A DNA stretch of 64,000 nucleotides from an uncultured Myxococcales bacterium (GCA_964480565.1 CAYZSU010000002.1:3367-67366); one strand, 5' to 3'; shown: positions 6,540 through 46,700, numbered from the stretch's first letter. Translations and numbers: made by a program. Notes: generated by a model from the sequence alone, not told the origin.

Positions 6540-6776
6540 TATTTCCTCCAATGGCCATGGGATTTATATCAGAAATACACGCTTGTCCATAAAAATGCTA
6601 GTTTGCCCCAGGACTTTTCGCATTTAAAATTATTACAAAAAACAGCTATTGTGAGGTTTTTGATTGGACAATTGAAATGCATATTTTCTATTTTTAGGAG
6701 ATTTTCGTTGATACTTCCATCGGTAAAAATCGGCAGAGCCTCCCCATCTAACTCACTTTGTTCGCTCAAATCGAGA

Positions 6777-7136
6777 TTATTTTTGAACAAATAATGCTTC
6801 AAACATGGGATCTACCTCTGCAGCATTGACAATTTGATTAGCGATCTTTAGAGCCATAGCCTCGTCAACAATATCAAATGAATCGCCGATAATCTCCCAA
6901 ACACGCTTTGTAATCGCTTGTTTAAGCTTTTCACGCCGCAATGTCCCCTGATTACCCCCCTTGGTCAGTTCATTCAACCATGCCGCACGATCTGCAAGCA
7001 CATGATTGGGCACATCAATGGATGGTGTTTTTTGTACTATTTTTTCCTTTTGATGTTTATCTGTCTCAATGCTGCCTTGTTGCAAGGCTTCCACAGATAC
7101 TTTATCCGCTAGATATTTAATTAAATCTGCTACCAT
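6777..7136 (-). CDS. Hypothetical protein
   Basis: ORF with GGGAGGAG Shine-Dalgarno sequence upstream of the ATG at 7136/7142. No recognisable domain. Confidence 0.35.
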   Translation of the reverse strand: MVADLIKYLADKVSVEALQQGSIETDKHQKEKIVQKTPSIDVPNHVLADRAAWLNELTKGGNQGTLRREKLKQAITKRVWEIIGDSFDIVDEAMALKIANQIVNAAEVDPMFEALFVQK

Positions 7137-7228
7137 AGTCATCTCCTCCCAAAGTATTACTATGCAGTTGTTACTTATTATTGTTATCGCACTTTTCAAC
7201 CAAAAAGTTGCTAATTTTTTTAATTATT

Positions 7229-7258
7229 TTAAAAAAAAGAGCGATTTATATCGCTCTT
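7229..7258 (-). terminator. Rho-independent terminator downstream of mltD
   Basis: Perfect hairpin AAGAGCGAT-ttata-TCGCTCTT (7237-7258), followed on the minus strand by T8 (7229-7236). Confidence 0.6.
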
Positions 7259-7287
7259 TTAAATCAAAACAAGGGTAATACTTATGT

Positions 7288-9420: not shown

Positions 9421-9435
9421 GACGACCTCATTAGT

Positions 9436-9486
9436 AAAAACTATATCGCACAACAATAATAACTACTATCATTACTGCTGTGCGAT
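9436..9486 (-). terminator. Candidate terminator after ftsZ (end of the dcw operon)
   Basis: Inverted repeat ATCGCACAaCAa...tgCTGTGCGAT (9445-9486), 5 nt after the ftsZ stop. Followed on the minus strand by TTTTTA. Confidence 0.4.
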
Positions 9487-9490
9487 TTAA

Positions 9491-10819
9491 TTAGTCCGCT
9501 TGTTTGCGTAGAAAAGTTGGAATATCATACTCATCATTTTGATATTCAATTACACCAATATCACGTGCCATCCCTTTCATTTCTTCACGAAATTCATCAT
9601 TATGAATGACTGATGGCTCAACAACTGCTTTTTGTGATGGTGCGCTGCGAGTGGCACCACTCGGATATGAAAATGTTCGTGCAGGTGCATCATCTATAAG
9701 AGGTTTGACTGTTTTTGTCACTGATTCCAAAATATTACTTCCTGATGAGGTTGTTCCTATTTTCGATGACCCTGCGATATTTTTTTGTGCATTAGCTTGA
9801 TTGGCCCGGCCTGCAATACCAATCGATTGTGTGGAATGTACTGGTCGATGCGCACGATTTAATGGCTTATTAAATCCAGTAGCAATCACTGTCACACGCA
9901 TTTCATCTTTCATGGATTCATCAATCACTGCACCAAAAAGTATATTGGCATCTTCATGGGCTTCCTCTTGAATAATCTTGGATGCTTCACTGATTTCAAC
10001 CAATGTCATATCTGAACCACCAGTAATATTGATGAGAATACCAGTCGCTCCTTTAATGGATGTATCCTCCAAAAGTGGACTAGAAATCGCATGTGTCGCA
10101 GCATCAATAGATCGACCCTCACCAACAGCAGAACCGGTACCCATAAGAGCCATACCCATTTCATTCATTACTGTACGTACATCTGCAAAGTCTAAATTGA
10201 TTAAGCCATGAACAATAATTAAATCTGAAATCCCTTTAACCGCTTGATGAAGAACTTGATCCGCCTGTTTAAACGCATCAACGACTGTCATATCAGGCGT
10301 AACAACACTAAGCAGCTTTTCATTTGGAATAGTAATTAATGTATCCACTGCATTTCGAAGTTCTGCCAAACCACGTTCAGCTTGCATATTACGATGACGG
10401 CCTTCGAAGGTAAATGGCTTGGTAACCACACCCACAGTCAATGCACCCATTTCTTTGGCAATTTTAGCAATGACAGGTGCGCCGCCAGTACCTGTACCAC
10501 CGCCCATACCTGCGGTAATAAAGACCATATCAGCGCCTTCCAAATGTTCTGCAATATTACGCTGATCTTCTAATGCCGCATTTTTACCTACATCTGGATT
10601 AGCACCTGCACCCAAACCTTTGGTGAGCTCGCGACCAATTTGAATCTTGGTTCCTGCTAAATTGGCATGAAGCGCCTGCATATCTGTATTTGCTGCGATA
10701 AAATCCACACCATCTAATCCGCATTCAAGCATTGTATTAACCGCATTTCCACCGCCACCGCCAATACCAATCACTTTTATTTTCGCATTCTGTGAATGAC
10801 TTTCTACTAATTCAAACAT
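9491..10819 (-). CDS. ftsZ: Cell division protein FtsZ
   Basis: GGGTGTG tubulin signature, NTDMQAL, and the C-terminal DIPTFLRK peptide. Confidence 0.95.
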
Positions 10820-28830: not shown

Positions 28831-29922
28831 TTATGATCGTATCAACTCCTGATAGATTAAATCATGAAGCTGCGGTCGAAATGCACGAATTGCAGTATTG
28901 GTAGAGGTGGGATGAATTCGATTACTGAGTAATATAACATGATACTTATTATCCAAATCAATCCACAGCGAACATCCTGTATACCCCAAATGCCCGATGG
29001 AATTGGCTGAAAAAAATCGACCCGAAGATGAATTCACAGAGGAAGGCCTCATCCAGCCTAGTACATATTGATCATTCTCCGGTTTATTTTCATCCGTATG
29101 CAAAAAATCATAGACTGTTTGTTGGGGCAACCAAGAACAATTTTTATGATAGCTACAGGCCAATGCCGCAGCAAATGCATCCAAATCCAAAGCACATGAA
29201 AACAAACCGGCATGCCCAGCCACTCCACCCAATGCATAGGCATTGGGATCATGCACCTGCGCATGAATGATTCGTTTGCGCCACGGGCAATCCTCTGTAG
29301 GGGCAAATCGACGGTTTTGCGCTAATATATCAGCCTGCTGTTTGGATATTTGCCCAATATTGCGAATGAAAAATGTATGATGCAATCCTAATGGCTGTGC
29401 AATATGATGACTAAAGAGCACATCTAACGGTGCATTCCCCGCTTCTTCTAAAATTCGACCCAATAAAATATACCCAATATCACTATAAATTATTTGATCT
29501 CCTGCCAAAGCAATCGCAGGCTCCTGATAGCAGGCATCCAACACCCATGCACGCCCTTCATCCGTACCCACCAAACTTCGCGGCAATTCTCGATAAAACG
29601 GTTGCCATGCGGCAAGCCCTGATACATGGGATAATAATTGCTGAACAGTCATCTGGCTATGAATTGACAAATCAGCTTTACCCAACCATTGCCCCACTGT
29701 ATCAGACAAACGAAGCAACCCAGAAGAGCATAGTTCCATTGCAACACTCGCAGTACAAACAGCCTTACTCAACGATGCAATATCGAACAATGTCCCATTT
29801 CTGGCATCACCAAAATAAGAATGAAATACAATTTGATCTTCATGCCTAACCAATACTTCAGCTGCAGGAAAGACATTATCCCGAATCGCATGTTCACATA
29901 ATTGTATAATGGCCTGATTCAT
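28831..29922 (-). CDS. Beta-lactamase-family serine hydrolase (class C / PBP4*-like)
   Basis: SxxK active-site motif FDIASLSKAV. Beta-lactamase-family length and composition. Confidence 0.7.
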   Translation of the reverse strand: MNQAIIQLCEHAIRDNVFPAAEVLVRHEDQIVFHSYFGDARNGTLFDIASLSKAVCTASVAMELCSSGLLRLSDTVGQWLGKADLSIHSQMTVQQLLSHVSGLAAWQPFYRELPRSLVGTDEGRAWVLDACYQEPAIALAGDQIIYSDIGYILLGRILEEAGNAPLDVLFSHHIAQPLGLHHTFFIRNIGQISKQQADILAQNRRFAPTEDCPWRKRIIHAQVHDPNAYALGGVAGHAGLFSCALDLDAFAAALACSYHKNCSWLPQQTVYDFLHTDENKPENDQYVLGWMRPSSVNSSSGRFFSANSIGHLGYTGCSLWIDLDNKYHVILLSNRIHPTSTNTAIRAFRPQLHDLIYQELIRS

Positions 29923-30881
29923 ATCGCATCCATAAGATAAAGCGTGCTATCTTGCGCTGTCATTGCAGATAGTGTACATGCTCGGTTTAGTGCAACAGTA
30001 AATGTATTTGCACAATGCCCGAATGGGCAACTCATCACAATTGGACCAGAAAACCCGGACAAACAATCCAGAATCATCTCCTTCATGTCATGGGTATCGT
30101 CCGCTCTATTTTCAAGAGTTCCAAATAAAATTGCTTTAGCGTTTAATAGCTGGCTCGAATTAATTAAATGCATTAGCATACGGTCAAGTGCATAGACATG
30201 CTCATTCACATCTTCAAGCATCACAATTTTTCCAGGTAAATCACTATGATATGCAGTCCCGACACTGGTGCTGAGCATACTAATACAGCCACCTGCTGTA
30301 CGACCCTCACAGTTACCAGATTGAATAATATCTGCCTGTTGCAAGGAAATCGTGTATGATTTTGAGGGTGATAGCAATGCACGTAAAAAAGATCCCTTTG
30401 CATCCATATCTGTACCTTGTGCAAGTTGTGTTAATACAGGACCATAATAAACATGGCATTTAGTGTGTTTGGCAATCATATTAAGCAATGGTGTTAAATC
30501 AGACAATCCAACAATCGTTTTGCTGATATGCGCATATTGCGCCCAATTTATTTGAGTTAATAAACGTTGCACACCATAGCCACCACGCGCAAACAAAATA
30601 ATATCAATGGAATCATCCGTAAGCAGTCGATTGATTTCATTCAAACGACGTTGATCATCACCCGCAAAATAGCGATATTGATCAAATATACTATTATCAT
30701 ATATAACGTCAAAACCATGTGCATGTAATTTTTGAATACCTACTTGAAATAAATCACGAGAAAAATGCCCAGAAAGCGCAGCAATACCCACACGTTTTTT
30801 TTCAGATCTTAATTTATCCCCCAACATGTATTTACTATACCCGCGTCCATCAAAAATCGCTAGTATTATATGACAATACAA
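29919..30881 (-). CDS. ldcA: LD-carboxypeptidase (peptidase S66, muramoyltetrapeptide carboxypeptidase-like). Alternative start ATG at 30827.
   Basis: S66 family blocks (IGIAALSGHF, FARGGYG) and a C-terminal catalytic region. Confidence 0.75.
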   Translation of the reverse strand: MYCHIILAIFDGRGYSKYMLGDKLRSEKKRVGIAALSGHFSRDLFQVGIQKLHAHGFDVIYDNSIFDQYRYFAGDDQRRLNEINRLLTDDSIDIILFARGGYGVQRLLTQINWAQYAHISKTIVGLSDLTPLLNMIAKHTKCHVYYGPVLTQLAQGTDMDAKGSFLRALLSPSKSYTISLQQADIIQSGNCEGRTAGGCISMLSTSVGTAYHSDLPGKIVMLEDVNEHVYALDRMLMHLINSSQLLNAKAILFGTLENRADDTHDMKEMILDCLSGFSGPIVMSCPFGHCANTFTVALNRACTLSAMTAQDSTLYLMDAI

Positions 30882-31155: not shown

Positions 31156-31665
31156 ATGACACGTACTTGGCTTATCGCACTCACAGCACTTATCACAACT
31201 TGCATGGTATCACCTCTTGTATATGCATTAAATGACTGCTACCATTCAGGGGAACAATTACTCATACATGATAATAGTACAGGACATGTTCGTTATGAAC
31301 GTACTGAGACAATTTATCAGCAACCTGATAATTTTTTACTCGCCACAATTGAAGATGAACGTATTATTTTCACACCCATTGTTGAAGTTTTCAAAAATGA
31401 GCTTACCAATCGTTTACTTCGCATTGAATTATCCACTGGCCATAGTTTGATGATCACAGAATCCCATCCAGTATGGGTGAATGACACATTTATCACAGCT
31501 GGCACATTAAGCATCGATGATACATTAACCAGTATTACTGGCGAATCCGTAAGCATCATGGATGTCAAGGTGATGAATTATGATGGATTTGTATATAATT
31601 TTGCTATCAATGGTTCAGGCATACAAATCAGCGATGGCATCCGCCTAGGCGGATCAGACATATAA
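31156..31665 (+). CDS. Small secreted protein consisting essentially of a Hint (Hedgehog/intein / bacterial intein-like) domain
   Basis: Strong AGGAG Shine-Dalgarno sequence. Signal peptide MTRTWLIALTALITTCMVSPLVYA. Hint-like blocks: LTGHSLMITESHPVWV, AGTLSIDDTLTSITGESVSI and the terminal VYNF. Confidence 0.45.
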   Translation: MTRTWLIALTALITTCMVSPLVYALNDCYHSGEQLLIHDNSTGHVRYERTETIYQQPDNFLLATIEDERIIFTPIVEVFKNELTNRLLRIELSTGHSLMITESHPVWVNDTFITAGTLSIDDTLTSITGESVSIMDVKVMNYDGFVYNFAINGSGIQISDGIRLGGSDI

Positions 31666-32130: not shown

Positions 32131-32217
32131 GGGGAGGTGGCCGAGTGGCTGAAGGCGGCACCCTGCTAAGGTGTTATACGGGAGACCGTATCGAGGGTTC
32201 AAATCCCTCCCTCTCCG
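32131..32217 (+). tRNA. tRNA-Ser (anticodon GCU), long variable arm. CCA not encoded.
   Basis: Folded by hand. Acceptor stem GGGGAGG/CCTCTCC (one G-U pair). D-arm GCCGAGTGGCTGAAGGC. Anticodon loop CTGCTAA. T-arm GAGGGTTCAAATCCCTC. Discriminator G. Confidence 0.9.
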
Positions 32218-32225
32218 CAACAAAA

Positions 32226-32354: not shown

Positions 32355-33565
32355 ATGAATAAAAAGGGACTCCAAAAAATCGGATACGATGAACGAATAG
32401 ACAGTGTAAGCGGTGAATACCTTCAGGACGGGTTTACGATTGCCAGAATAATCGAGGTAAAAATAGCTATACCGTATCAAATGGTCGTCATGAGATGCCG
32501 GCAGAACTCTGCGGTAAATTTCTATTTGATATAGAGAATACAAGCAATTTTCCGACTGTCGGTGACTGGGTAACAATACAGGCCCTTTCTGATAATGCAC
32601 TTGCCCTTATCCACTCTGTCTTGCCGCGCAAGACGCTATTGAAGTGTAAAGAAGCTGGCAGAAAAATAGCATTCCAGCTGATTGCTGCCAATATAGACAT
32701 CGGATTAATCGTACAACCAGCAGATCAGATTAACCTGCTGGATGGGACTGTTGAAAAACGCCCATCTTCGGTGTTGTTCAGCAAATTCAATTCAGTTACA
32801 TACTCGTATGTATGCGCCTTCATTGAATTTGCTGTCCGCCTAGAATCTGGGCATTTTTGAACAGCCCCTAAAATACCTATTTCTCAACAGTCCCTGGATA
32901 GGTATTGCGCGATGCTATAATGAGAGCGATATACAACCTATAGCGGTATTTACGAAAAAAGATCTGATCCCACCTGATGAGATCTCATCCATACAAAATG
33001 ACCTTGCCATGTTACACATGCAATATGTGTTTATCAGCAATGCCGTCAAAGGTGGAGAAACGGATCTATCCAAAAATCTCGTTTCAGGTAAAACATATTG
33101 TTTACTTGGCAAATCCGGAGTCGGCAAGACATCCCTTCTCAATCGATTGCTTCATAGTGATGAGTTCAAAGTAAATAATGTTCGAAAAAAAGATGGAAAA
33201 GGAAAGCATACCACTACAAAACGACAGCTGGTGTGTCTTGATTCCGGCAGCATCTTCATTGATACACCAGGCATGCGAGAACTTGGAAATTTTAAAATAA
33301 ACAAAGGCATCGATGAAACGTTTGAAGAGTTCTCTTTGCTAGCATTATCCTGTCGCTTCAAAAATTGTACCCATAACCACGAAGAGGGATGCGCAGTTCT
33401 TGACGCTATCTCACGGGGAAAATCGAACAAACTAGATATGATAATTTTTTAAAGCTCAAACGAGAGGCAGAATTCTATGACATGTCATATCATGAAAAGC
33501 GCCATAAGGATAAATCCTTTGGAAAAATGATAAAACAGTACAAAAAATTTAAAAATCAGCAATAG
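32355..33565 (+). pseudogene. rsgA: rsgA (ribosome small-subunit-dependent GTPase A) pseudogene, split by MITE copy D and at least three frameshifts
   Basis: RsgA blocks recovered in three different frames: OB domain (...CGKFLFDI...PTVGDWV), IAANIDIGLIV / LDRY / IAVFTKKDL, G domain (GKSGVGKTSLLN, GKGKHTTT, DTPG), zinc finger (CRFKNCTHNHEEGCAV) and tail RYDNFLKLKRE. Confidence 0.75.
32744..32893 (+). mobile_element. MITE-like dispersed repeat, copy D (core type 2), inserted inside rsgA. Direct duplication (C)TGGAT at 32738-32743 and 32894-32899.
   Basis: GGGACTGTTGAAAAACGCCCATCTTCGGTGTTGTTCAG...TCTGGGCATTTTTGAACAGCCCCTAAAATACCTATTTCTCAACAGTCC. Same termini as copies A-C but a different core. 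Confidence 0.8.
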
Positions 33566-33660: not shown

Positions 33661-34662
33661 CTACCTCACATGTACATCCACTATTTGAAATCGACTTGGA
33701 TTTTTTGTCGTATGCGGATCATTATCATAGGTGATCATCAGTCGCAGTGTATCATCATGATCATACGGTAGTACACAAATGCCTTCGGCTTTCATACCAT
33801 AACCAAAACTAGTGATTTCTCGCAATACATGCGGTGTATCTTTTGAAACCAACCATAGTTTATTCTCAAAAAAATTATTTTCATCATCCTCGCTGGCTGT
33901 TGTTACTAAAAAACCTTTTAGCCGAGGCACGTATTCCAAAGAGGATAATTCAAATCGTGTACCTGAGCTGGCTACACCTGCTTCAAAATCCAGTTGTTTT
34001 ACAAATGCAAGTTGATCGCCATTTTTTGCAGACGTTAAATCATCTGACAAATAGATGCGAAATGATTTTTTCAAATCCACAGCCTGCCGCACACCAATGG
34101 CGAGTCTCCCATCCCATATAGCAAGGCCTTCCAACTTCACAAGATCCCCATTTTTATCCGGTGGATATACACCTTTCCTCGTTAAGGCCTGATCCAAGTA
34201 AAACCTACTCACATCCATTATTTTATTTGGAATACCCTTTTTATTAAATGATGTAAGCGCAAAACGGATTAAATAGGAATTCACCTGATAGTATTTTAAT
34301 CCACCCGTATGCGAACTGAGCAGATAATAATAATGTCCATCATAGGCCATGGCTTCCCATTTAATGAATGGATTTTTCTTTATTGATGCAGATAGTTTAA
34401 AATTACCGTTATAAATGCGCGCCACTTCCTTACCCGTACGGACATTCACCACAAACACCCCTTTAGTTCGATCATCCGCAACCAACACATAGTTTCCTTG
34501 CCCAATGGGCGCAACTGCCGATGCCTCCAATGCAGTATCCACTTTATTTTTTGATTTCATGAATGGCCATGTGGGCGATGACAATTCATATGAATCCGCC
34601 CATGCAGTGGTTATTGCGCATATGCATATAATGATATAACCGACAAATGATTGAATTTTCAT
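33661..34662 (-). CDS. Secreted hypothetical protein (possibly beta-propeller-like)
   Basis: Signal peptide MKIQSFVGYIIICICAITTAWA. No confident domain assignment. Confidence 0.4.
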   Translation of the reverse strand: MKIQSFVGYIIICICAITTAWADSYELSSPTWPFMKSKNKVDTALEASAVAPIGQGNYVLVADDRTKGVFVVNVRTGKEVARIYNGNFKLSASIKKNPFIKWEAMAYDGHYYYLLSSHTGGLKYYQVNSYLIRFALTSFNKKGIPNKIMDVSRFYLDQALTRKGVYPPDKNGDLVKLEGLAIWDGRLAIGVRQAVDLKKSFRIYLSDDLTSAKNGDQLAFVKQLDFEAGVASSGTRFELSSLEYVPRLKGFLVTTASEDDENNFFENKLWLVSKDTPHVLREITSFGYGMKAEGICVLPYDHDDTLRLMITYDNDPHTTKNPSRFQIVDVHVR

Positions 34663-34786: not shown

Positions 34787-35476
34787 TTAATCTTTTTTCA
34801 TAATGAATAAATAATTAAATCCGCGCAAATAAAAATTGCCCTTCACCGCCTCATCCAAAAAATTCTTTCGTTTGAGTTTTTTATTATGGCGCACCACAGA
34901 AACAATATCGAGTGCCCGGAAGTATTTTTGTAATATTCCAAACAACTCAAAACCAATAGGTACAAACCCTTTTTTATTTTGATAGGTGTCGGACACATAC
35001 AATGCCATACAGCGCTTAGGCCGCATGATACGGTGAATTTCAGCAATCACCCGATGCATGGATTTAAAATAGTCCACCTCAAATGCAGATAGTTTACCAA
35101 TACATCGCTTATCATCGGAATAATCAATATGCGTGGAATATGGCGGATCGATAAATACAAAATCCGCTTTTTCATCCTCTAAAGGTAGCTTTCTTGCATC
35201 GGATCGAAAAATATCCTTTCGCGTGGGATTTAAGTCATAGCCCAATGCGCGCCGATTTAAGTCCCTAGCCACATCCAATGTCGTCCCGCTGCCACACATG
35301 GGATCCACGATTAAATCTTTTTTTCTTGTATAACGATTTAACAAGTTCCAAATAATATAGGATGGTGTTGCTCCTTCATAGTCTTTACTACCCTGTATTT
35401 CCCCACCATAATGTTGAGAAGGATAATCCCACAAAGTGGTACCATGCATGGGCACATTGTTTCTAGTATTATTCAT
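34787..35476 (-). CDS. Small SAM-dependent nucleic-acid methyltransferase (N6-adenine / N2-guanine amino-methyltransferase family; UPF0020-like)
   Basis: Motif I LIVDPMCGSGTTLDVA and motif IV FVFIDPPYS. No adjacent restriction endonuclease. Confidence 0.55.
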   Translation of the reverse strand: MNNTRNNVPMHGTTLWDYPSQHYGGEIQGSKDYEGATPSYIIWNLLNRYTRKKDLIVDPMCGSGTTLDVARDLNRRALGYDLNPTRKDIFRSDARKLPLEDEKADFVFIDPPYSTHIDYSDDKRCIGKLSAFEVDYFKSMHRVIAEIHRIMRPKRCMALYVSDTYQNKKGFVPIGFELFGILQKYFRALDIVSVVRHNKKLKRKNFLDEAVKGNFYLRGFNYLFIMKKD

Positions 35477-35492
35477 ACAATCCTCTTTGTTA

Positions 35493-37619
35493 TTAATACG
35501 ATTTTTTTCCGTAAATCCGCTGATAATTCCAATAGGCTGTCATGACTTTTTTCACATATAAATTTGTTTCTGCATACGGTATTTCCTCGATCCATTCATC
35601 AATACTTTGTTTTTTATTTGACTGAACCCAGCGTCCAGCTGCTTGCTCGCCTGCATTATAAGAAGCAATCATCGCAATTGGGTGGTCGGGAAACATCGTA
35701 TTCAATGTATGAATATAATGCATGCCCAATGTAATATTGAGCGTTGGGTTCATCAATTGCTTTCGCGATATGGCGCGATTATTCGCATACTGTTTAAATC
35801 GGTTGGCAGTGTAAGGCATGAGCTGCATAAGCCCCACTGCCCCTGCAGACGACACAACCTTTTCTTGGAAAAAAGATTCTGTGCGCATCAACGACCAAAT
35901 GAGTATGGGGTTAATCTGCAATAGTCGACTTAGCGGCATGATCACCAAGTCATAGGCAGGAGGAAATCGACTTGCAACCGAACGATGCGCCTGATAATTC
36001 GTATAGGCATTTTTCACAGATCCTTTATAATATAGACCTGCCACTTTAACGCCAAAATAATAGGCATTATTTTTCTCAGCTAAACTCCGCAGCACATCGG
36101 CATAGTCTTTTTTTCCGGCAATTGTCACATGCGCCAATTCCTTTTGCACCAAATCGGATAGCCCCATAGCATCAAATATAATCGCACGATTCACATGAAT
36201 CGCATAGGTATCATTGGGTGCAAATCGGATTGATGAATTATTTAACTTAATGCGCTTTAACTTCCGAGAAAACAATGTATGCATATTTATAGGTCTGCGC
36301 TTTAAGCGAAGTCTCGCCAACTGAGCATAATATCCATAGGGATATTTTTGAATGAGCGTTTGAAACAATGCCTTGCCTGTTTGTCGCTGTTTTATCCTCG
36401 TTAATGCAACTGCCTTCCAATACATGATGCGATCATTGATATGATATTTTTTAGCACTCCCTTTTAGCAATTGATCGAATATACGCACTGCCTTTGCATA
36501 ATTCTTCGTTTGATAATAACACCATGCCAAATACCAATTGGCCATGGTACGGAGTTTTCCCCGAAGCTTATACTTTGCCAATACATTCGTCCACTTGGCT
36601 ATTGCAAAGCGGTAGGCCCCTTTATCCATATGCAAATAAGCAATTCGGTAAGCAGTTAGACCTGCCAAACGTGACTTTGGATTTAATTTTTTCAACTGTT
36701 TTTTTCGTATTGCAAGCGCTTTTGAGTATTCACTTTTCTTGGCATATAAATTCACCATCAGCGATGGAATTGCATCCAAGTATGAAAATGTTCGCGCATA
36801 TTGCTTTATCTCGTGCAACAATGCCAATGCCTGATCATAATCATGCAACCATCGATAACTCTGCGCCAACAACCATTTCATCTTCACGCGATGGGCATGC
36901 GTGATATTTTTTGATACCAATGGTTTAAGCCGCAACACAATATCATCCCATTGTGAATACTCAGCAAATGATTCGCATAATGTGATTTGACGAGATGTAC
37001 TATCTGCCAGCCAAGCCATCACATCCACCTTAAATCGCTTGCGAATGGCGCTCGTCCATTCGGTTAACTGCATTAGCTCTGCTTCAGAACGACTGGACAG
37101 CATCAATTTCTTTGCCAATGCAATGCTTGCAGATTTCTTTTTAGCCGAAAGATATAGCTGCAATCGTTTGATATCCATATCGCGATGATTTATTTCCGGT
37201 AAATGTGACTTTGCGGACTCATACATATCTTCTGATTGCTGATATTTTTTATGATATGCATAAATCTCAGCCAAACCCTGATACGCATTTGCCTTCCATA
37301 TACTATCCAGGCTGTTTTGCAATATGGCTTGAAAAAGAATTTCCGATTGATTCCATTTTTTCGTATGCAGTGCAATAAGACCTTGATAATATAGCAATGT
37401 ATCATCAATTTGCCATAAATCTGGAAAAGCATCTTTCAACCAATACTCTGCCAAACGATATTCTTTATTTACAATTGCCTGATGCGCTTTTTGAAATTTT
37501 TTCACTGATTGTTTAGACGGAAAACCCATGGACGCACTGCCATAGGCATTAGCAGTCAGAAAAAAAATGATTAGAGAAATCCCTAAAAATAATTGTTTAA
37601 TCATAATGAGTAATTTCAT
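35493..37619 (-). CDS. slt: Soluble lytic murein transglycosylase (Slt70-like)
   Basis: Signal peptide, TPR-like superhelical N-domain, and C-terminal SLT catalytic block ...ESFFQEKVVSSAGAVGLMQLMPYTA...YNAGE. Confidence 0.8.
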   Translation of the reverse strand: MKLLIMIKQLFLGISLIIFFLTANAYGSASMGFPSKQSVKKFQKAHQAIVNKEYRLAEYWLKDAFPDLWQIDDTLLYYQGLIALHTKKWNQSEILFQAILQNSLDSIWKANAYQGLAEIYAYHKKYQQSEDMYESAKSHLPEINHRDMDIKRLQLYLSAKKKSASIALAKKLMLSSRSEAELMQLTEWTSAIRKRFKVDVMAWLADSTSRQITLCESFAEYSQWDDIVLRLKPLVSKNITHAHRVKMKWLLAQSYRWLHDYDQALALLHEIKQYARTFSYLDAIPSLMVNLYAKKSEYSKALAIRKKQLKKLNPKSRLAGLTAYRIAYLHMDKGAYRFAIAKWTNVLAKYKLRGKLRTMANWYLAWCYYQTKNYAKAVRIFDQLLKGSAKKYHINDRIMYWKAVALTRIKQRQTGKALFQTLIQKYPYGYYAQLARLRLKRRPINMHTLFSRKLKRIKLNNSSIRFAPNDTYAIHVNRAIIFDAMGLSDLVQKELAHVTIAGKKDYADVLRSLAEKNNAYYFGVKVAGLYYKGSVKNAYTNYQAHRSVASRFPPAYDLVIMPLSRLLQINPILIWSLMRTESFFQEKVVSSAGAVGLMQLMPYTANRFKQYANNRAISRKQLMNPTLNITLGMHYIHTLNTMFPDHPIAMIASYNAGEQAAGRWVQSNKKQSIDEWIEEIPYAETNLYVKKVMTAYWNYQRIYGKKSY

Positions 37620-37633
37620 GAACCTTCCACGGC

Positions 37634-40600
37634 TTAAAAAGATGATCCGAATGATAGAATCAGCATTCCATATTTCACATTACCGCCGGTAATTGGATCT
37701 GCGAGTGCAGATACGCGATCTCGGTTTAAGACAACAATACCATAGCCCAAACGCCCATGAATTGGCAAGCCATGGCCAACAATAAAATCCCCTTTTAGTT
37801 CCGCACCCACACTTAATAAAAAGTGATCAAAGAAGTCAGAAGCACGATCGCAGCTCCCTGATGTAGAACTACAATGCGCATACCAGGCATTGCCATAGTC
37901 CGCAAATACAGCAGCACTAACACTTTTCAAAAAAAATGGCATAGTGCCTAGCCCTCGCTGAGGCGATACAATTGGAATACGAAATTCGGATGAAAATAAC
38001 ATGGCCCGCGTTGCAGAAAATGTAGATAAAGGAATACCCCTTAGTGGAAAATAGTGTAATGAACCTGAACTTGCCAACGTACCTTCGCCTAAATCGCCAC
38101 CCATGCCAAATGTGCCCTGCACTAGCGTATCTCCCCACGTAATGCCACCTGCACCACGAAGTGCGACAACATAATGATGTCCCAAAGAAATATACTCCCG
38201 CCAGTCACCTGCAAAGATAATCTGCTCATTGCGTGCACCGCTACCAAAGACCTCATTGCTAATCGATGTGCTCAACTTGATAGATCGTCCTTTTTCTGAA
38301 CTAATAGATGCTGCATAGCGCCGTGCATTATTATAGCCATATCGCAAACGAAAACCTGTAAAATAGCCCAAGTTCAACAAGTTTCGATTCGCAGCTGTTA
38401 AGTTATTTTTCACCTTATGATGCTCCAAAAAATAACTTAACGTAAATCCATGGCCTTTAAAACTTTGTGATGCAAAAACAGTGGCTGCTCGACGATGTTC
38501 ATATAAATGGACAATGCCTGTGCTTCCACCAAAGTTTCTATTTCCAAAATCCACGGCATAGTCCATCACTCTAAATCCGAAACGCGGACGAAACTGACTA
38601 TAAGTATATTGAAAACTACCCCCTATATGGCTGATATCGCTTCGATACTGCACACCGCCTATCCAAGTATGCCACCGCAGCGGATCCATACCGCCTGTAT
38701 TTAACCCCATAAACATGGTATCGCCAAAAATAAACATCGGCGCAATAAAGCGAGGTAATAGAAGGGATTTTCCAAACGGACGATAGGATTTTGTATCTTC
38801 AAATACATGGTCAATTTTTTCCTGATCTTGCTTGGATAATGTTAATTGTTTATAATCAATAATCGCGTCGCGTGACTCTGACCGATTGTGATGCAACTGT
38901 GCAAGCATTGGTGTTGCAGATTTTTTTGGCATTACCCATCTTGCAATTTCATAACCACCCGAATGATATCGCCTGCCAATAATGCTGCTTCCATATGGAC
39001 GCGTGGGCTGAAATATCCCGGTAAGTGTATTGGTAAGTGCTTTTTCATTTTCCCCCTTATAGGAAATCCGATATAAATTATTAACCCCATTTTGATCGGA
39101 GCTAAACACAATATATTGCCCATCTGCATTCCACATAGGCCGTGACTGAATAATACGCCCTTTGGCGGAACTTAGTGCCATTGGCATCTTACCATCACTA
39201 TTATATCGATATATTCGCCATCCCTTATCTGCCTGCCATTTGGATGCTACAATGTATTTTCCATCTGGCGACAACCGTGGATAGGCCAATTGCGTATAAT
39301 CTTCATCCGATGTTAAATACGTTACTTTGCGTGTTTTACGATCAAATACAGCTAGCCGATCAATCATAGCGCCTGATTTAACGAATAATACATGATCGGT
39401 ATCATGATAAAATTCAGGATCCTTCGCACGCATGCCAAATGTTAGACGCTTTATTTCATGAGACTCGCCATCAAATTTAATGGCATATATATCGGATACA
39501 AAACGATGCTTTAATCGACGCATTGTTGAGTAGAGCAATTGTGTCCCATCTGCACTCCATGAAAAATAATTGGCCTTGTGACCGCGTTTTAACATTTTTA
39601 TTTTTTTTGTTTCAAAATCATACAAACGTATTTCACTGGATTGATGCGGTGTTTGCACGCTATACACCAGCTTCTTTGCATCCGGCGACAATGTGGGTGC
39701 ATTCAGCTGCTCATCTTTTCCTTGCTCAATAATAGTTTGGTATGCAGATATCGGATTTTTTGACAATTCATCACGTTGAATTAAATAGCGATGCTTTAAA
39801 AAAGCATACCATTCATACCATAAATCATAGACACTTTTCCCATAAATACGCTTGGCATGATGGTTAATCATCGTTAACAATAAGGATGATCGAATTTGTT
39901 TATCCCATTTTAGAAAATTATCTTCACCATAAGCGTCGACCAACCAATGCACAAATCGCACACCATAAATATATGCTGCTGCACTCCCTGGATGACGATA
40001 CCCCAACCCATCTGCTTGATCAATTTTAGGGAATTTTTTCTCTAATACTGCGCTTCGCACCACCATATCACTATAAGTTCCTCGCCCTCGCCCTGCTTTT
40101 GTATAAATTGTTTCATCGTATTGTGCCAAACCTTCACGCAACCATATGGGATTTAAACCAGACGGTGCCGTTGTTTTACCAAGAAGATAACGAAAGGGCG
40201 TCCATAAACCACCATAAGCATCAATTTGTACAATGTGAGTAAACTCGTGAGTCAGCAATGTGCGCAACCAATCATCGTAATGGGCCAGTGATGATTCTGG
40301 ATCTGGCGGACCTGCATAAATGATCATCCAATTATATGGCAAGACACTCGCAATGCCATTGGAATCATCATGACTATCAATAAGAACCACTTCCGTGCGT
40401 CCCCATGGCTCAAACGACCATTTTTTTGTAATCTCCGGATAGATTTCTTCCAAAATAATGGCCGACTGTTTTGCAATCTGCTCAATTGATTTGGGATAAT
40501 TAATTTTAAAATGCTCTGTCTGCACACTTTGCCATGAAAGCGTTGGATCAAATATGCCTGCAATGGATGGCGAAGAAAAGAATAGTACGGATAATAAAAT

Positions 40601-40648
40601 TAACACTACAACAACCAGGTATAATTTAAATATTTTTCGCATGTCCAT
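37634..40648 (-). CDS. Large outer-membrane protein: N-terminal HExxH metallopeptidase-like region, TolB-like PD40 beta-propeller repeats, and C-terminal beta-barrel
   Basis: HEFTHIVQ...EGLAQYDET (HExxH plus downstream Glu). PD40-type repeats (LSPDAKKLVYSV, WSADGTQLLYST, LSPDGKYIVASK, WNADGQYIVFSSD). C-terminal ~350 aa of alternating amphipathic strands ending ...GMLILSFGSSF. Signal peptide from the ATG at 40648. Confidence 0.55.
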   Translation of the reverse strand: MDMRKIFKLYLVVVVLILLSVLFFSSPSIAGIFDPTLSWQSVQTEHFKINYPKSIEQIAKQSAIILEEIYPEITKKWSFEPWGRTEVVLIDSHDDSNGIASVLPYNWMIIYAGPPDPESSLAHYDDWLRTLLTHEFTHIVQIDAYGGLWTPFRYLLGKTTAPSGLNPIWLREGLAQYDETIYTKAGRGRGTYSDMVVRSAVLEKKFPKIDQADGLGYRHPGSAAAYIYGVRFVHWLVDAYGEDNFLKWDKQIRSSLLLTMINHHAKRIYGKSVYDLWYEWYAFLKHRYLIQRDELSKNPISAYQTIIEQGKDEQLNAPTLSPDAKKLVYSVQTPHQSSEIRLYDFETKKIKMLKRGHKANYFSWSADGTQLLYSTMRRLKHRFVSDIYAIKFDGESHEIKRLTFGMRAKDPEFYHDTDHVLFVKSGAMIDRLAVFDRKTRKVTYLTSDEDYTQLAYPRLSPDGKYIVASKWQADKGWRIYRYNSDGKMPMALSSAKGRIIQSRPMWNADGQYIVFSSDQNGVNNLYRISYKGENEKALTNTLTGIFQPTRPYGSSIIGRRYHSGGYEIARWVMPKKSATPMLAQLHHNRSESRDAIIDYKQLTLSKQDQEKIDHVFEDTKSYRPFGKSLLLPRFIAPMFIFGDTMFMGLNTGGMDPLRWHTWIGGVQYRSDISHIGGSFQYTYSQFRPRFGFRVMDYAVDFGNRNFGGSTGIVHLYEHRRAATVFASQSFKGHGFTLSYFLEHHKVKNNLTAANRNLLNLGYFTGFRLRYGYNNARRYAASISSEKGRSIKLSTSISNEVFGSGARNEQIIFAGDWREYISLGHHYVVALRGAGGITWGDTLVQGTFGMGGDLGEGTLASSGSLHYFPLRGIPLSTFSATRAMLFSSEFRIPIVSPQRGLGTMPFFLKSVSAAVFADYGNAWYAHCSSTSGSCDRASDFFDHFLLSVGAELKGDFIVGHGLPIHGRLGYGIVVLNRDRVSALADPITGGNVKYGMLILSFGSSF

Positions 40649-40812
40649 AAAATACTCAAACATAGTTAAAACCTCAACGTCTAAATAAAATAATATACGC
40701 CGATCCAATCATTTTTTTGATTGATGGATGCGGTATGTATTTGTGTTTTTTAAAAAACATTTCTACTATACGAAAACAATTATTTTATATCATAATGTAC
40801 GGGGGAAATAGA

Positions 40813-42558
40813 ATGACAATTGCAATCCATGTCACCCATGAAGCCATTGGAAAAATCGGCGGCATTGGGGCTGTACTTGAAGGCTTATTGCCTACTCCCA
40901 TATATCAAAAAACATTTCCAACAACCCTGCTCTATACGCCTTTATTCACAAAAGATGCCTTGCTTGAAAATCGCTTGGGCGATAATGCAGAGGTTCTATA
41001 TTCCAGCATTGACAAGTATGATAGCGATCACTGGTCTGATATATTTGCCCCCATTCAATCCATGTATGGCATTCATATTGTCTATGGTAAAAAAACATAT
41101 CAGCCTGCAGGGTCGCAATTGCAAACAGTCACTGATATTTTAGCGGTGGACATCGCTGATATGACGCCAAAATCCATCGATGCATTTAAGTATGCACTTT
41201 GGCAGCATTTTCAATTTCGCTCAGATAAATACAGCGCAGACACTGACTTTGAGCAGTTCTTACGCTTAGGAATTCCATTAACAGCCATTTTAGACAGCCT
41301 TTATCCAGAGCAGGCCGCACACATATTCTCACACGAATACATGGGTATGCCATCGGCATTGGCCATTAAGATCGCTCAAAAAAATAACTGCCGCATGCAG
41401 GATAAAACAATCTTCTATGCACATGAAATATGTACAGCCAGATCCATTGTTGAAAACCATCCTGGGCATGATCTATCATTTTATAATCTTTTGAATGCAG
41501 ATACTAGCGATGGCATTTCTATGGAAGATGAGTTTGAATCCTTTGCGCATTACTCGCGTAGCGAATTGGTCAAGCTTGCCTGCGAACTCGATCATATCTA
41601 TGCAGTAAGTGATATTACCAAACGCGAGTATCAATATCTTTGTCCTCATGTGGATATAGATAAAATTCATACTGTCTACAATGGCATTTCATACAATCAT
41701 ATTCCTTATAAGGAAAAACAAAAAAGCCAGCGATTGATCAAAACATATTGCGAATCATTGTTTAACTTTAAACCGGATTTTATTTTCACCCATGTCACGC
41801 GCCTGGTGCCGAGTAAAGCAATTTGGCGAGATATCCGTTTACTAGAGAGCCTCGACAAACACTTTGCAGCCAATCGTAAAAAGGGAGTTTTCATTTTACT
41901 CTCTACATTGATGGGTAATGGCCGCTGCAATGACGATGTACATCAAATGGAATTTGAATACGGTTGGCCCGTACTTCATAAAGAAGGATGGCCCGATCTT
42001 GTTTATTCTGAAGTTGACATCTACCGCTCACTGGAAATTTTCAATGCGCGATCGCAAGCCATCAAAGGAGTTTTCTTAAATCAATTTGGTTTTGATCGTT
42101 TACGCTGTGGCATGCGTATTCCAGAAAAAGCCAATTTTCTCCATTTACGCCAAGCCTCGGACCTTGAATTTGGAATGTCCATTTATGAACCTTTTGGCAT
42201 TGCCCAACTGGAAACACTTCCTTATGGAGGACGACCCGTAGTAAGCAGTGTATGTGGTTGTGCCTCCCTATTAAAACAGCATATGGAAAACAATGATCAC
42301 TTTATTATTGATTTCACCAAAGTGCCGGCCAAATTACAAAATGCCTTTCAGCATAAAAATGACTATAAACATATTTCAACTCAGCTACGTGATTTAGTAG
42401 AAACAGAAATTTGTAATGATGTTAGCGGGCAGTTATTTGAGGCATTGCCACACAATCAAATCAGCCGTCAAGCCATCTATGAACATATGCAGGATTATGC
42501 CAAACGATTGGATTGGAACGAAATCGCAGTCAATGTATGCAGCCCTTTTTCCAAATAA
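40813..42558 (+). CDS. Glycogen synthase, eukaryotic-type (GT3 family). Start ATG at 40813 with a GGGGGA Shine-Dalgarno sequence.
   Basis: N-terminal IHVTHEAIGKIGGIGAV matches the GT3 FEVAWEVANKVGGIYTV block. FGMSIYEPFGIAQLETLPYGGRPVVSSVCG matches GYS YYEPWGYTPAEC...G.PSVTTNLSGFG. Confidence 0.65.
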   Translation: MTIAIHVTHEAIGKIGGIGAVLEGLLPTPIYQKTFPTTLLYTPLFTKDALLENRLGDNAEVLYSSIDKYDSDHWSDIFAPIQSMYGIHIVYGKKTYQPAGSQLQTVTDILAVDIADMTPKSIDAFKYALWQHFQFRSDKYSADTDFEQFLRLGIPLTAILDSLYPEQAAHIFSHEYMGMPSALAIKIAQKNNCRMQDKTIFYAHEICTARSIVENHPGHDLSFYNLLNADTSDGISMEDEFESFAHYSRSELVKLACELDHIYAVSDITKREYQYLCPHVDIDKIHTVYNGISYNHIPYKEKQKSQRLIKTYCESLFNFKPDFIFTHVTRLVPSKAIWRDIRLLESLDKHFAANRKKGVFILLSTLMGNGRCNDDVHQMEFEYGWPVLHKEGWPDLVYSEVDIYRSLEIFNARSQAIKGVFLNQFGFDRLRCGMRIPEKANFLHLRQASDLEFGMSIYEPFGIAQLETLPYGGRPVVSSVCGCASLLKQHMENNDHFIIDFTKVPAKLQNAFQHKNDYKHISTQLRDLVETEICNDVSGQLFEALPHNQISRQAIYEHMQDYAKRLDWNEIAVNVCSPFSK

Positions 42559-44102: not shown

Positions 44103-46700
44103 TTACCCCTTCCATTTCACATATTCAGGAAATACATGATGAAACAATGCATCGTTTGGCACAATTCGAACACCCGTTTCCTGCAATCCTGATCCTTTTA
44201 TATCTAGCTCAATATTATATTTCGCAACTTTATCATCATATGTTTCAACATATGTCATGGGCATATATTTATAGTCATTTAGACCTGCTCCATACTGATA
44301 AAACAGCTCTACATTAAATAAAGACATATCTGTATCACCTGTAAACACATAGCTATCAATCACAAGATGACCCTCTGTATGCAAACTCTTTTCATCCAAA
44401 ATTGGGAAAAAATCACGAATATGAACATCTGACCAATAGCGATCAATCAGTTCTTTATGCGCGAGTAAACGCTTTAATAGCTCCCCCTTATTATGGGTAA
44501 TGCGACTAGCCATATCCATCTGTGGCAAGTAAAAGCGATACAAATAATCTCGCACTGCGCGATGCATATTAAAACCCGACGATACTGTGGCAATAGATCG
44601 CTTCATCATGGATATCCACTTTGTCGGCACATCACCTTCACCACGATCATAGTATGTGGATGTAATATCATTTTCCAATAATTCGTAAATTTGATTGGCT
44701 TCCGCTTCATCAGCAATGTCATTATTGCAACACTCTTCACCCGCATTAATTGCCCAACCATTACTACCATCATAGGCTTCTGGCCACCAGCCATCAAGCA
44801 CACTAAAGTTCAATACACCATTAATACCGGCCTTCATCCCAGATGTACCGCTTGCTTCCATGGGTTTACGTGGATTATTCAACCATACATCCACACCCTG
44901 AACTAAATGACGACCAATATTAATATCATAATCTTCTACAAAAACGACATGATTCTCTACTGGATAGTCATTGATAAATTGAAAAATACGTTTAATTAAA
45001 TCCTTGCCAATACCATCTGCAGGATGTGCTTTCCCCGCAAATACAAGTTGCACAGGCCGTTCAGGGTTAGTTAGGATAGCGGCCAATCGCTCTGGGTCCA
45101 TAAAAATTAAATTCGCCCGTTTATATGCGGCAAAACGCCTTGCAAAACCAATGGTTAAATATTCTGGATTCAAGATACTACTGATATCCATTCGTTTGCC
45201 CTTACCAATGCCACGGTGCTTCGCCATTTTACGAAGTCGCCTACGAATAAATGATACATTTTGTTCTTTTCGACGTCGATGCGCATTCCATATTTCATTA
45301 TCTGGAATTGTATCCACCTTTTCCCATAATGAATCACTTTCCGCATTATGTAGATAATCAGGCCCCACATAGCGATCAAATAATTCAGCAAGCTGCAAAC
45401 TCAGCCAACTTTGAATATGCACACCATTGGTCACGCCTTCAATTGGATACTCCGTAGTATGGCGATTGGGATATAAGCCCTTCCACATACCCCGCGATAC
45501 TTCGGCATGCAATTCAGATACGGCATTGGCTTTTCGTGAAAATTGAAGCGCCAATGCAGATAATGAAAATGAGGCATCCTTAAAGACAATTTTCTTTGTC
45601 TTTTTATCATCTGAAACCATCTCTATTTTTTCTGTATTAACTTTTCCAAAGCATAATAAATCGTTCATGGAGATATGCAGCTCATTCGCAACAGGAGCTA
45701 AGTAATCTTGAATCAATTCATCATCAAAACTTTCATTTCCAGCAATTACCGGCGTATGCGTGGTAAACACAGTGCTGTATTGAATAGTCAGCTTTGCTTC
45801 TTCCATGGAATAACCTTTTTTGGTTAAACTCAATAATCGCTCAAAAATACTAAATGCCGTATGCCCTTCATTTAAATGATAGACTTTAGGAGTAATACCC
45901 AATGCGTTCATCGCAATGATACTACCACGCCCCACCAAGAGCTCCTGCTCTAAGCGCACACGACGATCCGAATCATACAACCGTGATGTAATATAACGAT
46001 GTTCAGGCTTATTTTTTTGAATATTCGTATCCAGTAAATACAGTGGCACTCGACCTACCTGAATCTTCCAGACCTTTGCATATATAATATCTTTTTTAAG
46101 AGGCACTTCAATTATAAGTGGCGTTTGATCGTCATTGAATACCTCTGAAATCGCCCGAAGATACCATTGTTGATCTTGATATTCCTCTACCTGAGTACCG
46201 TCTACAGAAATTTGCTGACCAAAATACCCCACGCCATACTTCAATCCAAAGCTCACCATATTACAACCAATATCAGAAGCTGCCTTTAAATGGTCCCCAG
46301 CTAAAATTCCTAAACCGCCAGAATATCCTGGAATCGATTCATGCAATCCATACTCCATACATAAATAGACGATCACATCATCGGATGAAAATGGTTTTGT
46401 TTCGCCATTTTCTTTGTATACACCTTCAAAGTTCATATAGCGTTTAAATTTATCATAGACGCTATTAACCTCATATATAAATCCTTCATCCTGAGCTATT
46501 TCATTTAAGCGCATTTCACCCACATTAAAGAGTACATCGATGGGACTATGATTGTGCTCCCGAAACAACTGCGGATTAATACGGTGAAACAATCGCTGAG
46601 CATCTTTATCCCAGCAAGACCATACATTCATTGCAATTTCGCACAATGGATTTAGTGAATCAGGTATGGTGGGCTTTACAAAAAAAGAGCATAAATCCAT
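44103..46700 (-). CDS. glgP: Alpha-glucan family phosphorylase (GT35, with DUF3417-type N-terminus)
   Basis: PLP-site block ASGTSGMKAGINGVLNFSVLDGWW. GT35 length and conserved blocks. Confidence 0.85.
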   Translation of the reverse strand: MDLCSFFVKPTIPDSLNPLCEIAMNVWSCWDKDAQRLFHRINPQLFREHNHSPIDVLFNVGEMRLNEIAQDEGFIYEVNSVYDKFKRYMNFEGVYKENGETKPFSSDDVIVYLCMEYGLHESIPGYSGGLGILAGDHLKAASDIGCNMVSFGLKYGVGYFGQQISVDGTQVEEYQDQQWYLRAISEVFNDDQTPLIIEVPLKKDIIYAKVWKIQVGRVPLYLLDTNIQKNKPEHRYITSRLYDSDRRVRLEQELLVGRGSIIAMNALGITPKVYHLNEGHTAFSIFERLLSLTKKGYSMEEAKLTIQYSTVFTTHTPVIAGNESFDDELIQDYLAPVANELHISMNDLLCFGKVNTEKIEMVSDDKKTKKIVFKDASFSLSALALQFSRKANAVSELHAEVSRGMWKGLYPNRHTTEYPIEGVTNGVHIQSWLSLQLAELFDRYVGPDYLHNAESDSLWEKVDTIPDNEIWNAHRRRKEQNVSFIRRRLRKMAKHRGIGKGKRMDISSILNPEYLTIGFARRFAAYKRANLIFMDPERLAAILTNPERPVQLVFAGKAHPADGIGKDLIKRIFQFINDYPVENHVVFVEDYDINIGRHLVQGVDVWLNNPRKPMEASGTSGMKAGINGVLNFSVLDGWWPEAYDGSNGWAINAGEECCNNDIADEAEANQIYELLENDITSTYYDRGEGDVPTKWISMMKRSIATVSSGFNMHRAVRDYLYRFYLPQMDMASRITHNKGELLKRLLAHKELIDRYWSDVHIRDFFPILDEKSLHTEGHLVIDSYVFTGDTDMSLFNVELFYQYGAGLNDYKYMPMTYVETYDDKVAKYNIELDIKGSGLQETGVRIVPNDALFHHVFPEYVKWKG

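Follow-up and report, generated by a model that had tools for sequence, protein, structure and literature searches.

A WD40-like Omp85 protein with a probable zinc-peptidase domain and its lytic transglycosylase neighbour in an uncultured Myxococcales bacterium

Within a 64,000-nucleotide (nt) stretch of DNA from an uncultured Myxococcales bacterium (GCA_964480565.1, CAYZSU010000002.1:3367-67366), hereafter the window, we analysed three tightly spaced open reading frames (ORFs) that all lie on the minus strand between positions 34787 and 40708. The first encodes a large protein in which a metallopeptidase-type domain, a TolB-like beta-propeller and a C-terminal beta-barrel follow one another; the second encodes a protein with TPR repeats and an SLT lytic transglycosylase domain (hereafter Slt), and the third a small amino-methyltransferase (Table 1). 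We found that the large protein belongs to the 'WD40-like' branch of the Omp85 superfamily, which lacks POTRA domains, and the pairing of its gene with the Slt gene recurs in related bacteria. A preliminary description of the locus had taken the three genes as an operon and the large protein as a candidate module for envelope remodelling or surface proteolysis.

Table 1 Features of the locus. Nucleotide positions refer to the window; residues of the large protein follow the 1004-residue form.
Feature	Position (nt)	Strand	Residues or length	Remark
Peptidase-propeller-Omp85 gene	37634..40663	-	1009 amino acids from ATG 40663; 1004 from ATG 40648	
Signal peptide	40559..40648	-	1-30	...SSPSIA/GIFDP, from translation
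Gluzincin (clan MA(E)) metallopeptidase domain	39749..40558	-	31-300	
HEFTH	40235-40249	-	134-138	within peptidase domain
Glu172	40133-40135	-	172	candidate zinc ligand, within peptidase domain
Tyr226	39971-39973	-	226	candidate catalytic Tyr, within peptidase domain
Six-bladed TolB-like (PD40) beta-propeller	38924..39748	-	301-575	
Variable linker	38750..38923	-	576-633	
16-strand Omp85-type beta-barrel	37637..38749	-	634-1004	
Loop-6 LRG motif	38036-38044	-	869-871	
FADYG	37892-37906	-	915-919	
TPR + SLT lytic transglycosylase gene	35493..37619	-	708 amino acids	
SLT domain	35592-35918	-	568-676	Pfam
Catalytic Glu581 (in TES)	35877-35879	-	581	motif reading
N6/N4-type amino-methyltransferase gene	34787..35476	-	229 amino acids	

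The stop codon of the large gene is separated from the ATG of the Slt gene by 14 nt containing a Shine-Dalgarno (SD)-like GGAAGG, and the Slt stop codon from the methyltransferase ATG by 16 nt containing an SD-like AGAGGA, spacings that had been reported before and that the ORF coordinates confirmed. In its longest form the large ORF starts with TTG and spans 37634..40708; in-frame ATG codons occur at 40663, 40648 and 40642, and an SD-like GAGG lies 8 nt 5' of the one at 40663. Public gene calls give the protein 1009 (P0001) or 1024 (P0387) amino acids. The 1004-residue start proposed earlier (40648) is present as an ATG but is one of several candidates. Several start codons are possible for this gene, and the choice is immaterial to the analysis; residues are numbered here from the ATG at 40648.

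An ORF of more than 1000 codons in DNA of 39% guanine plus cytosine, with 366 homologues in one search, is far beyond chance. The identical protein was present in JGI 3300009008 (37-kilobase (kb) contig), JGI 3300007510, Logan SRR8062320, ENA ERZ23498660 (68-kb scaffold) and an NCBI record. Because four or more assemblies or samples, independent of one another, contain this identical full-length ORF, we could rule out the assembly chimera that the preliminary description had named as a way in which it could fail. Furthermore, the same architecture recurs in hundreds of genomes across phyla, with invariant catalytic and barrel motifs. On these three grounds we excluded, for all practical purposes, an artefact in the form of either a chimera joining unrelated genes or a decayed pseudo-enzyme.

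The large protein carries a Sec signal peptide and is, to judge from its sequence, exported; its signal peptide contains no lipobox Cys in the translation, and it is therefore expected to be a substrate of signal peptidase I. An AlphaFold2 (AF2) model computed from an alignment of 40 homologues with identities down to 21% (alignment A1) reached a mean pLDDT (predicted local distance difference test) of 87.5 and a pTM (predicted template modelling score) of 0.88. The model consists of a single N-terminal helix (residues 3-23) followed by a low-confidence segment (25-30), an alpha/beta domain (39-295), 24 strands that form six four-stranded blades (303-572), a disordered stretch (577-604), a helix (606-617) and 16 long strands (634-1001), and its high pTM points to a defined packing of the three domains. 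Pfam and NCBIfam cover the protein only in part, leaving the last ~400 residues without a match. Nevertheless, the AF2 model, Foldseek and sequence profiles agreed on the three-part anatomy of HExxH region, PD40 repeats and C-terminal barrel that had been described initially; that the C-terminus might not be a membrane barrel, or the HExxH might not sit in a peptidase fold, were both checked, and neither proved to be the case. We regard the architecture as near certain. Mean identity to homologues was 42% in the peptidase domain, 39% in the barrel, 30% in the propeller and 19% in the linker.

The N-terminal domain shows the gluzincin catalytic fold, which is thermolysin-like with an N-terminal beta-sheet and helical subdomains, and it has the HExxH motif with a downstream Glu that defines clan MA(E). 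The HEFTH with a downstream Glu noted in the preliminary description thus stands, with Glu172 as the downstream residue: H134, E135, H138, E172 and Y226 were invariant in all 40 homologues, down to 21% identity. When the domain alone was searched as a profile against the PDB, one marginal match was obtained, the M1 aminopeptidase 3cia (E 0.024), in whose alignment E172 falls on the zinc-ligand Glu of WLNEG and Y226 on the conserved Tyr. We compared the domain with several gluzincins, namely M1 (ERAP1, APN, LTA4H), M30 hyicolysin and lugdulysin, M9 collagenases and M4 thermolysin. Membership of the M1 family was rejected, since the GxMEN motif is absent from the query (and present in 1 of the 40 homologues) and the His-to-Glu spacing, which is 18 residues in M1, is 33 here and in 31 of the 40; M1 domains I and IV are also absent. 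The domain is accordingly M1-like in fold only. The zinc-peptidase site appears intact and, because the catalytic residues are invariant, peptidase activity is likely. Endopeptidase rather than exopeptidase activity is likewise the likely mode, given that the exopeptidase motif GxMEN of M1 is lacking.

The propeller was recognised by Pfam as PD40 repeats (E 9.5e-14), and the 'four or more' repeats counted initially correspond to six blades in the AF2 model. TolB was matched by the large protein both in structure (Foldseek 5e-11) and by sequence profile (7e-33), and is the best solved structural match of the propeller. An orthologue of TolB was nevertheless rejected: the score against the TolB equivalog TIGR02800 was 84.7 bits versus a cutoff of 343, only the propeller part was aligned, and the N-terminal TolA-binding domain was not matched. 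TolB is soluble and possesses that TolA-binding domain, whereas the window protein lacks it and is covalently anchored to an outer-membrane barrel. Between propeller and barrel lies a linker that varies in length and is the least conserved region of the protein; its residues 577-604 are disordered (pLDDT <50), and the helix 606-617 is followed by a Y622...P632-R633 motif just before strand 1, in which Y622 and P632 are invariant in the 40 homologues. No POTRA domain was found here, as judged by the lack of a Pfam match and by an AF2 linker that consists only of the disordered stretch and one helix.

The C-terminal ~370 residues form a 16-strand barrel ending in Phe1004 in both the AF2 model and the alignment, in line with the C-terminal barrel ending in Phe that had been proposed. 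The barrel matched BamA in Foldseek (7e-9) and in a C-terminal profile search (BamA, E 5e-8; Fusobacterium nucleatum BamA, 3e-7), and its LRG, EYR and FaDxGxxW motifs and terminal aromatic residue could be aligned to those of BamA. Conservation across the 40 homologues was high at R870 (36/40), G871 (39/40), R890 (40/40), F915 (32/40), D917 (40/40), G919 (37/40) and F1004 (37/40). The LRG motif sits in a long loop between strands 11 and 12, matching BamA loop 6, and the AF2 model places short helices at the positions of BamA loops 4 and 7. The hallmarks of the Omp85/TpsB superfamily, a 16-strand BamA/FhaC-type barrel with the loop-6 motif and the strand-13 FxDxG, are therefore all present, and the barrel is closer to BamA, TamA and Sam50 than to TpsB transporters or porins. 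Full-length homologues scored above the 24-bit cutoff of Pfam Omp85 (PF01103), at 54.7 (P0076), 34.9 (P0108), 32.9 (P0083) and 24.6 bits (P0073).

In comparison with characterised Omp85 proteins, the window protein carries an enzymatic domain and a propeller in the place that POTRA domains occupy in BamA, TamA and Sam50; we rejected a BamA or TamA orthologue owing to the absence of POTRA, and found no evidence in the window protein for an insertase activity such as that of BamA and TamA. PlpD provides a precedent for an N-terminal enzyme on an Omp85-type barrel (PMC4104836), but it has a POTRA domain and a secreted lipase passenger, whereas here POTRA is absent and the peptidase and propeller are probably periplasmic. 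BepA (an M48 peptidase with TPR repeats, associated with the beta-barrel assembly machinery (BAM)), tricorn, and the S9 prolyl oligopeptidase and DPP-IV belong to other peptidase families and are soluble or peripheral, in contrast to the barrel fusion in the window protein.

The preliminary description did not recognise this order of domains, which remains true of characterised families but not of the architecture itself, since it was catalogued in 2014 among the ten subfamilies into which the Omp85/TpsB superfamily was split (Heinz & Lithgow 2014, Front Microbiol 5:370; PMC4104836). The 'WD40-like' subfamily defined there combines PF07676 repeats with PF01103, lacks POTRA and counted 62 proteins; Table S3 of that study lists members from Caldithrix, Rhodothermus, Sideroxydans, Myxococcus and Chloroherpeton, with Phyre matches to BamA/TamA, to TolB and, as 'best aminopeptidase hit', to 1z5h, 4kxd and 4fgm, and the proteins were likened to a BamA-BamB fusion (PMC4104836). 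A later paper ascribes 'divergent WD40 and peptidase domains' to the subfamily (PMC11358297), and two BAM reviews mention WD40 only for BamB. The window protein has the PD40 propeller before a POTRA-less Omp85 barrel and the M1-type aminopeptidase-like region before the propeller that mark this subfamily; architecture and all three fold classes are the same, and we found no structural difference. The 2014 study neither emphasised an intact catalytic site nor reported a pairing with Slt (PMC4104836). The window family is probably also the one described as 'OMP-TolB-like' or 'FhaC-TolB-like' barrels (Mol Biol Evol 2025, msaf138; PMC12204202), exemplified by A0A1F3SUA3 from Bdellovibrionales, in which, as here, a barrel is joined to a six-bladed TolB-like propeller in the periplasm with an N-terminal domain next to it; that adjacent domain was called a Rossmann fold, whereas in the window protein it is a gluzincin peptidase. 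According to the same study, these proteins may be ancestors of TolB that early on took part in the remodelling of septal peptidoglycan (PMC12204202). They are widespread and often automatically annotated as TolB, and one cluster member in our data is named 'translocation protein TolB'.

A profile hidden Markov model of the peptidase domain retrieved 9388 cluster representatives (clusters at 50% identity) at E<=1e-3 and 2663 at E<=1e-30, and the best matches were mostly 950-1130 amino acids long. By pattern and tblastn searches with one genome per GTDB species, at least 590 genomes carried a relative. Relatives occurred in Nitrospirota, Gallionellaceae, Myxococcota, Acidobacteriota, Ca. Manganitrophus and metagenome-assembled genomes (MAGs) of Sericytochromatia and Saganbacteria. 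Within the family the window protein is divergent: apart from its own copies, no relative exceeds 52% identity to it; the closest genome besides these copies was a 'Deltaproteobacteria bacterium' MAG (GCA_018645265.1) at 50% identity, and a close sequenced relative of the window organism is absent from the GTDB-species collection searched.

The second gene encodes a secreted lytic transglycosylase. Pfam SLT (PF01464) was matched with 93.8 bits (E 7e-27) in addition to TPR families, a signal peptide is present, and E581-S582, followed by GLMQLMP, is preceded by a superhelical TPR region, an arrangement of Glu-Ser SLT domain after superhelical repeats that is typical of family 1 (Slt70-type). 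The initial call of a Slt70-like lytic transglycosylase was thus supported by Pfam and NCBIfam at the family level, whereas a Slt70 equivalog was rejected, with 84 versus 536 bits for Slt70 (PRK11619); the score for the Borrelia BB0259-like equivalog, 151 versus 234 bits, was also below its cutoff. The TPR + family-1 SLT layout is common to Slt70 and BB0259, and the difference lies in the pairing with an Omp85-peptidase gene in this clade. Comparison of 80 related loci revealed a TPR + SLT gene directly downstream of the large gene, on the same strand, in eight of them (L004, L005, L006, L007, L010, L062, L063 and L078), with a gap of -26 to +24 nt in seven and of 267 nt in L063. The pairing was found at 7 of the 10 loci with at least 35% identity to the window protein, as well as in L078 at 32%, and was absent from more distant loci. 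YbgF/CpoB-type TPR matches were detected in all eight partners and in the window Slt at 35-84 bits, each under the cutoff of 90, the window Slt itself scoring 35 bits. Hence, of the three-gene module envisaged in the preliminary description, the Slt partner is conserved in the close clade, but the methyltransferase is not.

The third gene is indeed the DPMCGSG/DPPY amino-methyltransferase that it had been taken for, with 75.3 bits against Pfam N6_N4_Mtase (PF01555; cutoff 26.7), DPMCGSG (motif I) at residue 58 and DPPY (motif IV) at residue 110. Motif I precedes motif IV, the reverse of their order in the Pfam model. The protein matches PADLOC type II methyltransferase models (E 1e-22) and is unusually conserved, with more than 5000 homologues at 68-82% identity in phyla that include Planctomycetota, Gemmatimonadota, Hydrogenedentes and Myxococcota. 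A restriction-modification system was rejected, as no restriction endonuclease adjoins the gene in the window or in the four homologue neighbourhoods examined, and the pattern fits a housekeeping methyltransferase of RNA, DNA or protein better.

That all three genes, methyltransferase included, constitute one functional envelope-remodelling operon is a very improbable reading. The spacers of 14 and 16 nt with their SD-like motifs, and the lack of a detected terminator between the genes, do make co-transcription in this genome plausible, and the methyltransferase is probably co-transcribed here. Yet it follows the Slt gene solely in contigs identical to the window; in GCA_018645265.1, which carries the closest Omp85-Slt pair, a 76%-identical methyltransferase is found on a separate contig, with genes for aldehyde dehydrogenase and acetyl-CoA synthetase as its neighbours, and other homologues are solitary genes in unrelated housekeeping contexts. 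Moreover, it has no signal peptide and matches DNA/RNA methyltransferase families. On conservation and genomic context we therefore rejected it as a member of the module and regard it as a passenger, which revises its functional inclusion in the preliminary description.

We propose that the large protein is an outer-membrane-anchored, periplasm-facing peptidase that acts at the interface between the outer membrane and peptidoglycan, a reading to which we assign a probability of roughly 0.55. The barrel would anchor the protein in the outer membrane, possibly keeping an Omp85-type gating, and would hold both N-terminal domains at the inner side of that membrane. By analogy to TolB, tricorn and the S9 family, the propeller could serve as a platform for substrate or partner binding and for gating, while the thermolysin/M1-like site may cleave unfolded or tethered envelope polypeptides near the outer membrane. 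Together with the secreted TPR + SLT gene, the large gene forms a conserved two-gene unit in this lineage, and the conservation of this partner points to envelope maintenance or remodelling at the outer-membrane/peptidoglycan interface. As for orientation, the loop with LRG connects strands 11 and 12, like loop 6 of BamA, so that strand 1 should start on the periplasmic side, and the N-terminal domains quite probably reside in the periplasm; the surface proteolysis initially considered would require the less likely topology.

Several observations weigh against this proposal. The orientation is derived from strand parity relative to BamA, and the 28-residue disordered linker with its helix before the barrel might in principle thread the pore. 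The window protein has no match to Pfam Omp85 (PF01103), and its relation to Peptidase_MA_2 (PF13485) appears borderline, with 17.6 bits (E 0.0035) against a gathering threshold of 32.4, where two homologues reached 32.2 (P0083) and 27.4 bits (P0088). Gluzincins are not typical hydrolases of peptidoglycan stem peptides. SLT was encoded at 8 of the 55 loci that have a called same-strand downstream gene, and no neighbour was universally conserved across the 80 loci, where synteny was confined to particular clades (SLT in the close clade, an NAD-epimerase in Nitrospirota, and others); the Slt link may thus represent lineage-specific synteny and not a functional requirement. A scan for promoter and terminator consensus sites returned them no more frequently than in shuffled controls. 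In the literature searched, we found no experimental work on any member of the family.

A role in outer-membrane protein assembly or quality control, in which the barrel would retain a BamA/TamA-like insertase or lateral-gate function, the propeller would take the part of BamB and the peptidase would degrade stalled substrates like BepA at BAM, is a distinctly less probable explanation, though one that is compatible with a periplasmic peptidase and not exclusive of it. The closeness of the barrel to BamA, TamA and Sam50 rather than to TpsB transporters or porins, its strongly conserved loop-6 and strand-13 Omp85 motifs, and a barrel conservation near that of the peptidase domain (39% versus 42%) are all consistent with such a role, as are the 'BamA-BamB fusion' idea of Heinz and Lithgow (PMC4104836) and, in two related loci, a divergent upstream gene of the AsmA/YhdP type, whose members partner TamA. 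By contrast, POTRA, the substrate-handling element of BamA and TamA, is absent, genes for BAM lipoproteins or chaperones do not recur in the neighbourhoods, the AsmA-like neighbour is missing from the window and from all lineages but one, and the conserved barrel motifs may serve folding alone. A comparably low probability attaches to a Tol-Pal-like coordinator, which overlaps with the proposed periplasmic peptidase: here the propeller would bind a Pal/OmpA-type or peptidoglycan-linked partner and, with Slt, remodel peptidoglycan and its tethers during growth or division, the peptidase freeing or trimming tethering proteins. No Pal/OmpA-like gene was found in the neighbourhood and the Slt pairing is absent from most of the family; within the close clade, on the other hand, the pairing with the TPR + SLT gene is tight and conserved. 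The YbgF/CpoB-type TPR matches of all eight partners and the window Slt would fit this coordinator, but they are below threshold and such similarity is generic for TPR_6 repeats. The propeller finds its best solved match in TolB, and the proposal that OMP-TolB-like proteins are TolB ancestors active in septal peptidoglycan remodelling also lends it support (PMC12204202). Going one step further, the peptidase-propeller-barrel protein and the CpoB-like Slt might constitute a self-contained outer-membrane machine that coordinates peptidoglycan cleavage with the release or turnover of tethers; we consider this unlikely, but if it is true, the pair would correspond in function to the periplasmic half of Tol-Pal, of which it may be an evolutionary relic, with proteolysis in place of energised TolB-Pal cycling.

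A surface-displayed protease of the PlpD kind (type Vd), whose enzyme would be exported through or alongside the barrel for nutrient acquisition or surface proteolysis, is more doubtful still. PlpD sets the precedent of an Omp85 barrel with a secreted N-terminal enzyme (PMC4104836), and the disordered linker 577-604 with the helix 606-617 recalls autotransporter linkers. PlpD, however, has the POTRA that is absent here; the passenger would comprise ~570 residues in two compact, packed domains (pTM 0.88), and, if the strands are counted as in BamA, strand 1 begins on the periplasmic side. Slt, the partner that is conserved, is a lytic transglycosylase of the periplasm, and propellers of the TolB type are periplasmic.

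Beyond these genes, we recorded several features of related loci. An AsmA/YhdP/DUF748-family protein of ~610 amino acids is encoded divergently upstream of the large gene in L010 (6028-7863, minus strand) and L062 (6039-7865, minus strand); this class partners the Omp85 protein TamA, and here it was confined to a single lineage and is absent from the window. A Sericytochromatia MAG (L067) carries two adjacent, divergent copies of the family (5690-7774, minus strand; 8001-10778, plus strand), the second of which matches query residues 12-694 at 26% identity. In nine loci of Myxococcota/Polyangiaceae (L044, L046, L047, L049, L053, L054, L058, L059 and L065), a gene for a conserved Pro/Ala-rich protein of ~356 amino acids precedes the large gene on the same strand, a clade-specific synteny distinct from the Slt pairing.

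In the window itself, a 581-residue protein is encoded divergently from the large gene (40813-42558, plus strand) and borders a glycogen-metabolism cluster (GDE, GT5 glycogen synthase, GH57 and alpha-glucan phosphorylase at 44103-46700), while a secreted 333-residue protein is encoded just downstream of the methyltransferase (33661-34662, minus strand). Neither had a match in Pfam, at the NCBIfam level or in PADLOC, and neither the large protein nor the 333-residue neighbour matched a PADLOC defence system. Further downstream, rsgA, the gene of a ribosome-assembly GTPase, is apparently split into two plus-strand pieces (32495-32860 and 33009-33452) with ~150 nt and frame changes between them; the N-terminal piece has no Pfam match and the C-terminal piece matches RsgA_GTPase with 91 bits, and the public call on an identical contig comprises only the 144-residue C-terminal piece. 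The split could reflect a pseudogene, an insertion or a shared assembly error. A small secreted protein of 169 residues (31156-31665, plus strand) showed a marginal match to Pretoxin-HINT (27.0 bits, cutoff 27.7), and its gene stands alone beside a tRNA-Ser(GCU) (32131-32218) that was the only match of the tRNA and Rfam scans. An S66 LD-carboxypeptidase, an LdcA-like enzyme of peptidoglycan recycling, is encoded ~4 kb downstream (29919-30881, minus strand), and is not in the same operon because the tRNA and plus-strand genes intervene.

In summary, the window protein belongs to a large and phylogenetically broad family, among the few Omp85 branches with an apparently catalytic, probably periplasmic module. 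To the existing catalogue of WD40-like proteins, our analysis adds a zinc-peptidase site that is invariant and lies in the most conserved part of the protein, a barrel of the BamA/TamA type with its hallmark motifs intact, and, in one deep lineage, a tight coupling to a TPR + SLT lytic transglycosylase. For the window, this well-supported annotation replaces labels such as 'hypothetical', 'PD40 domain' or 'TolB', and the methyltransferase no longer counts as part of the proposed module. The coupling to Slt yields a testable hypothesis on the outer-membrane/peptidoglycan interface, and the conservation of the peptidase site implies that members of the family should be treated as enzymes and not as 'TolB-like' scaffolds.

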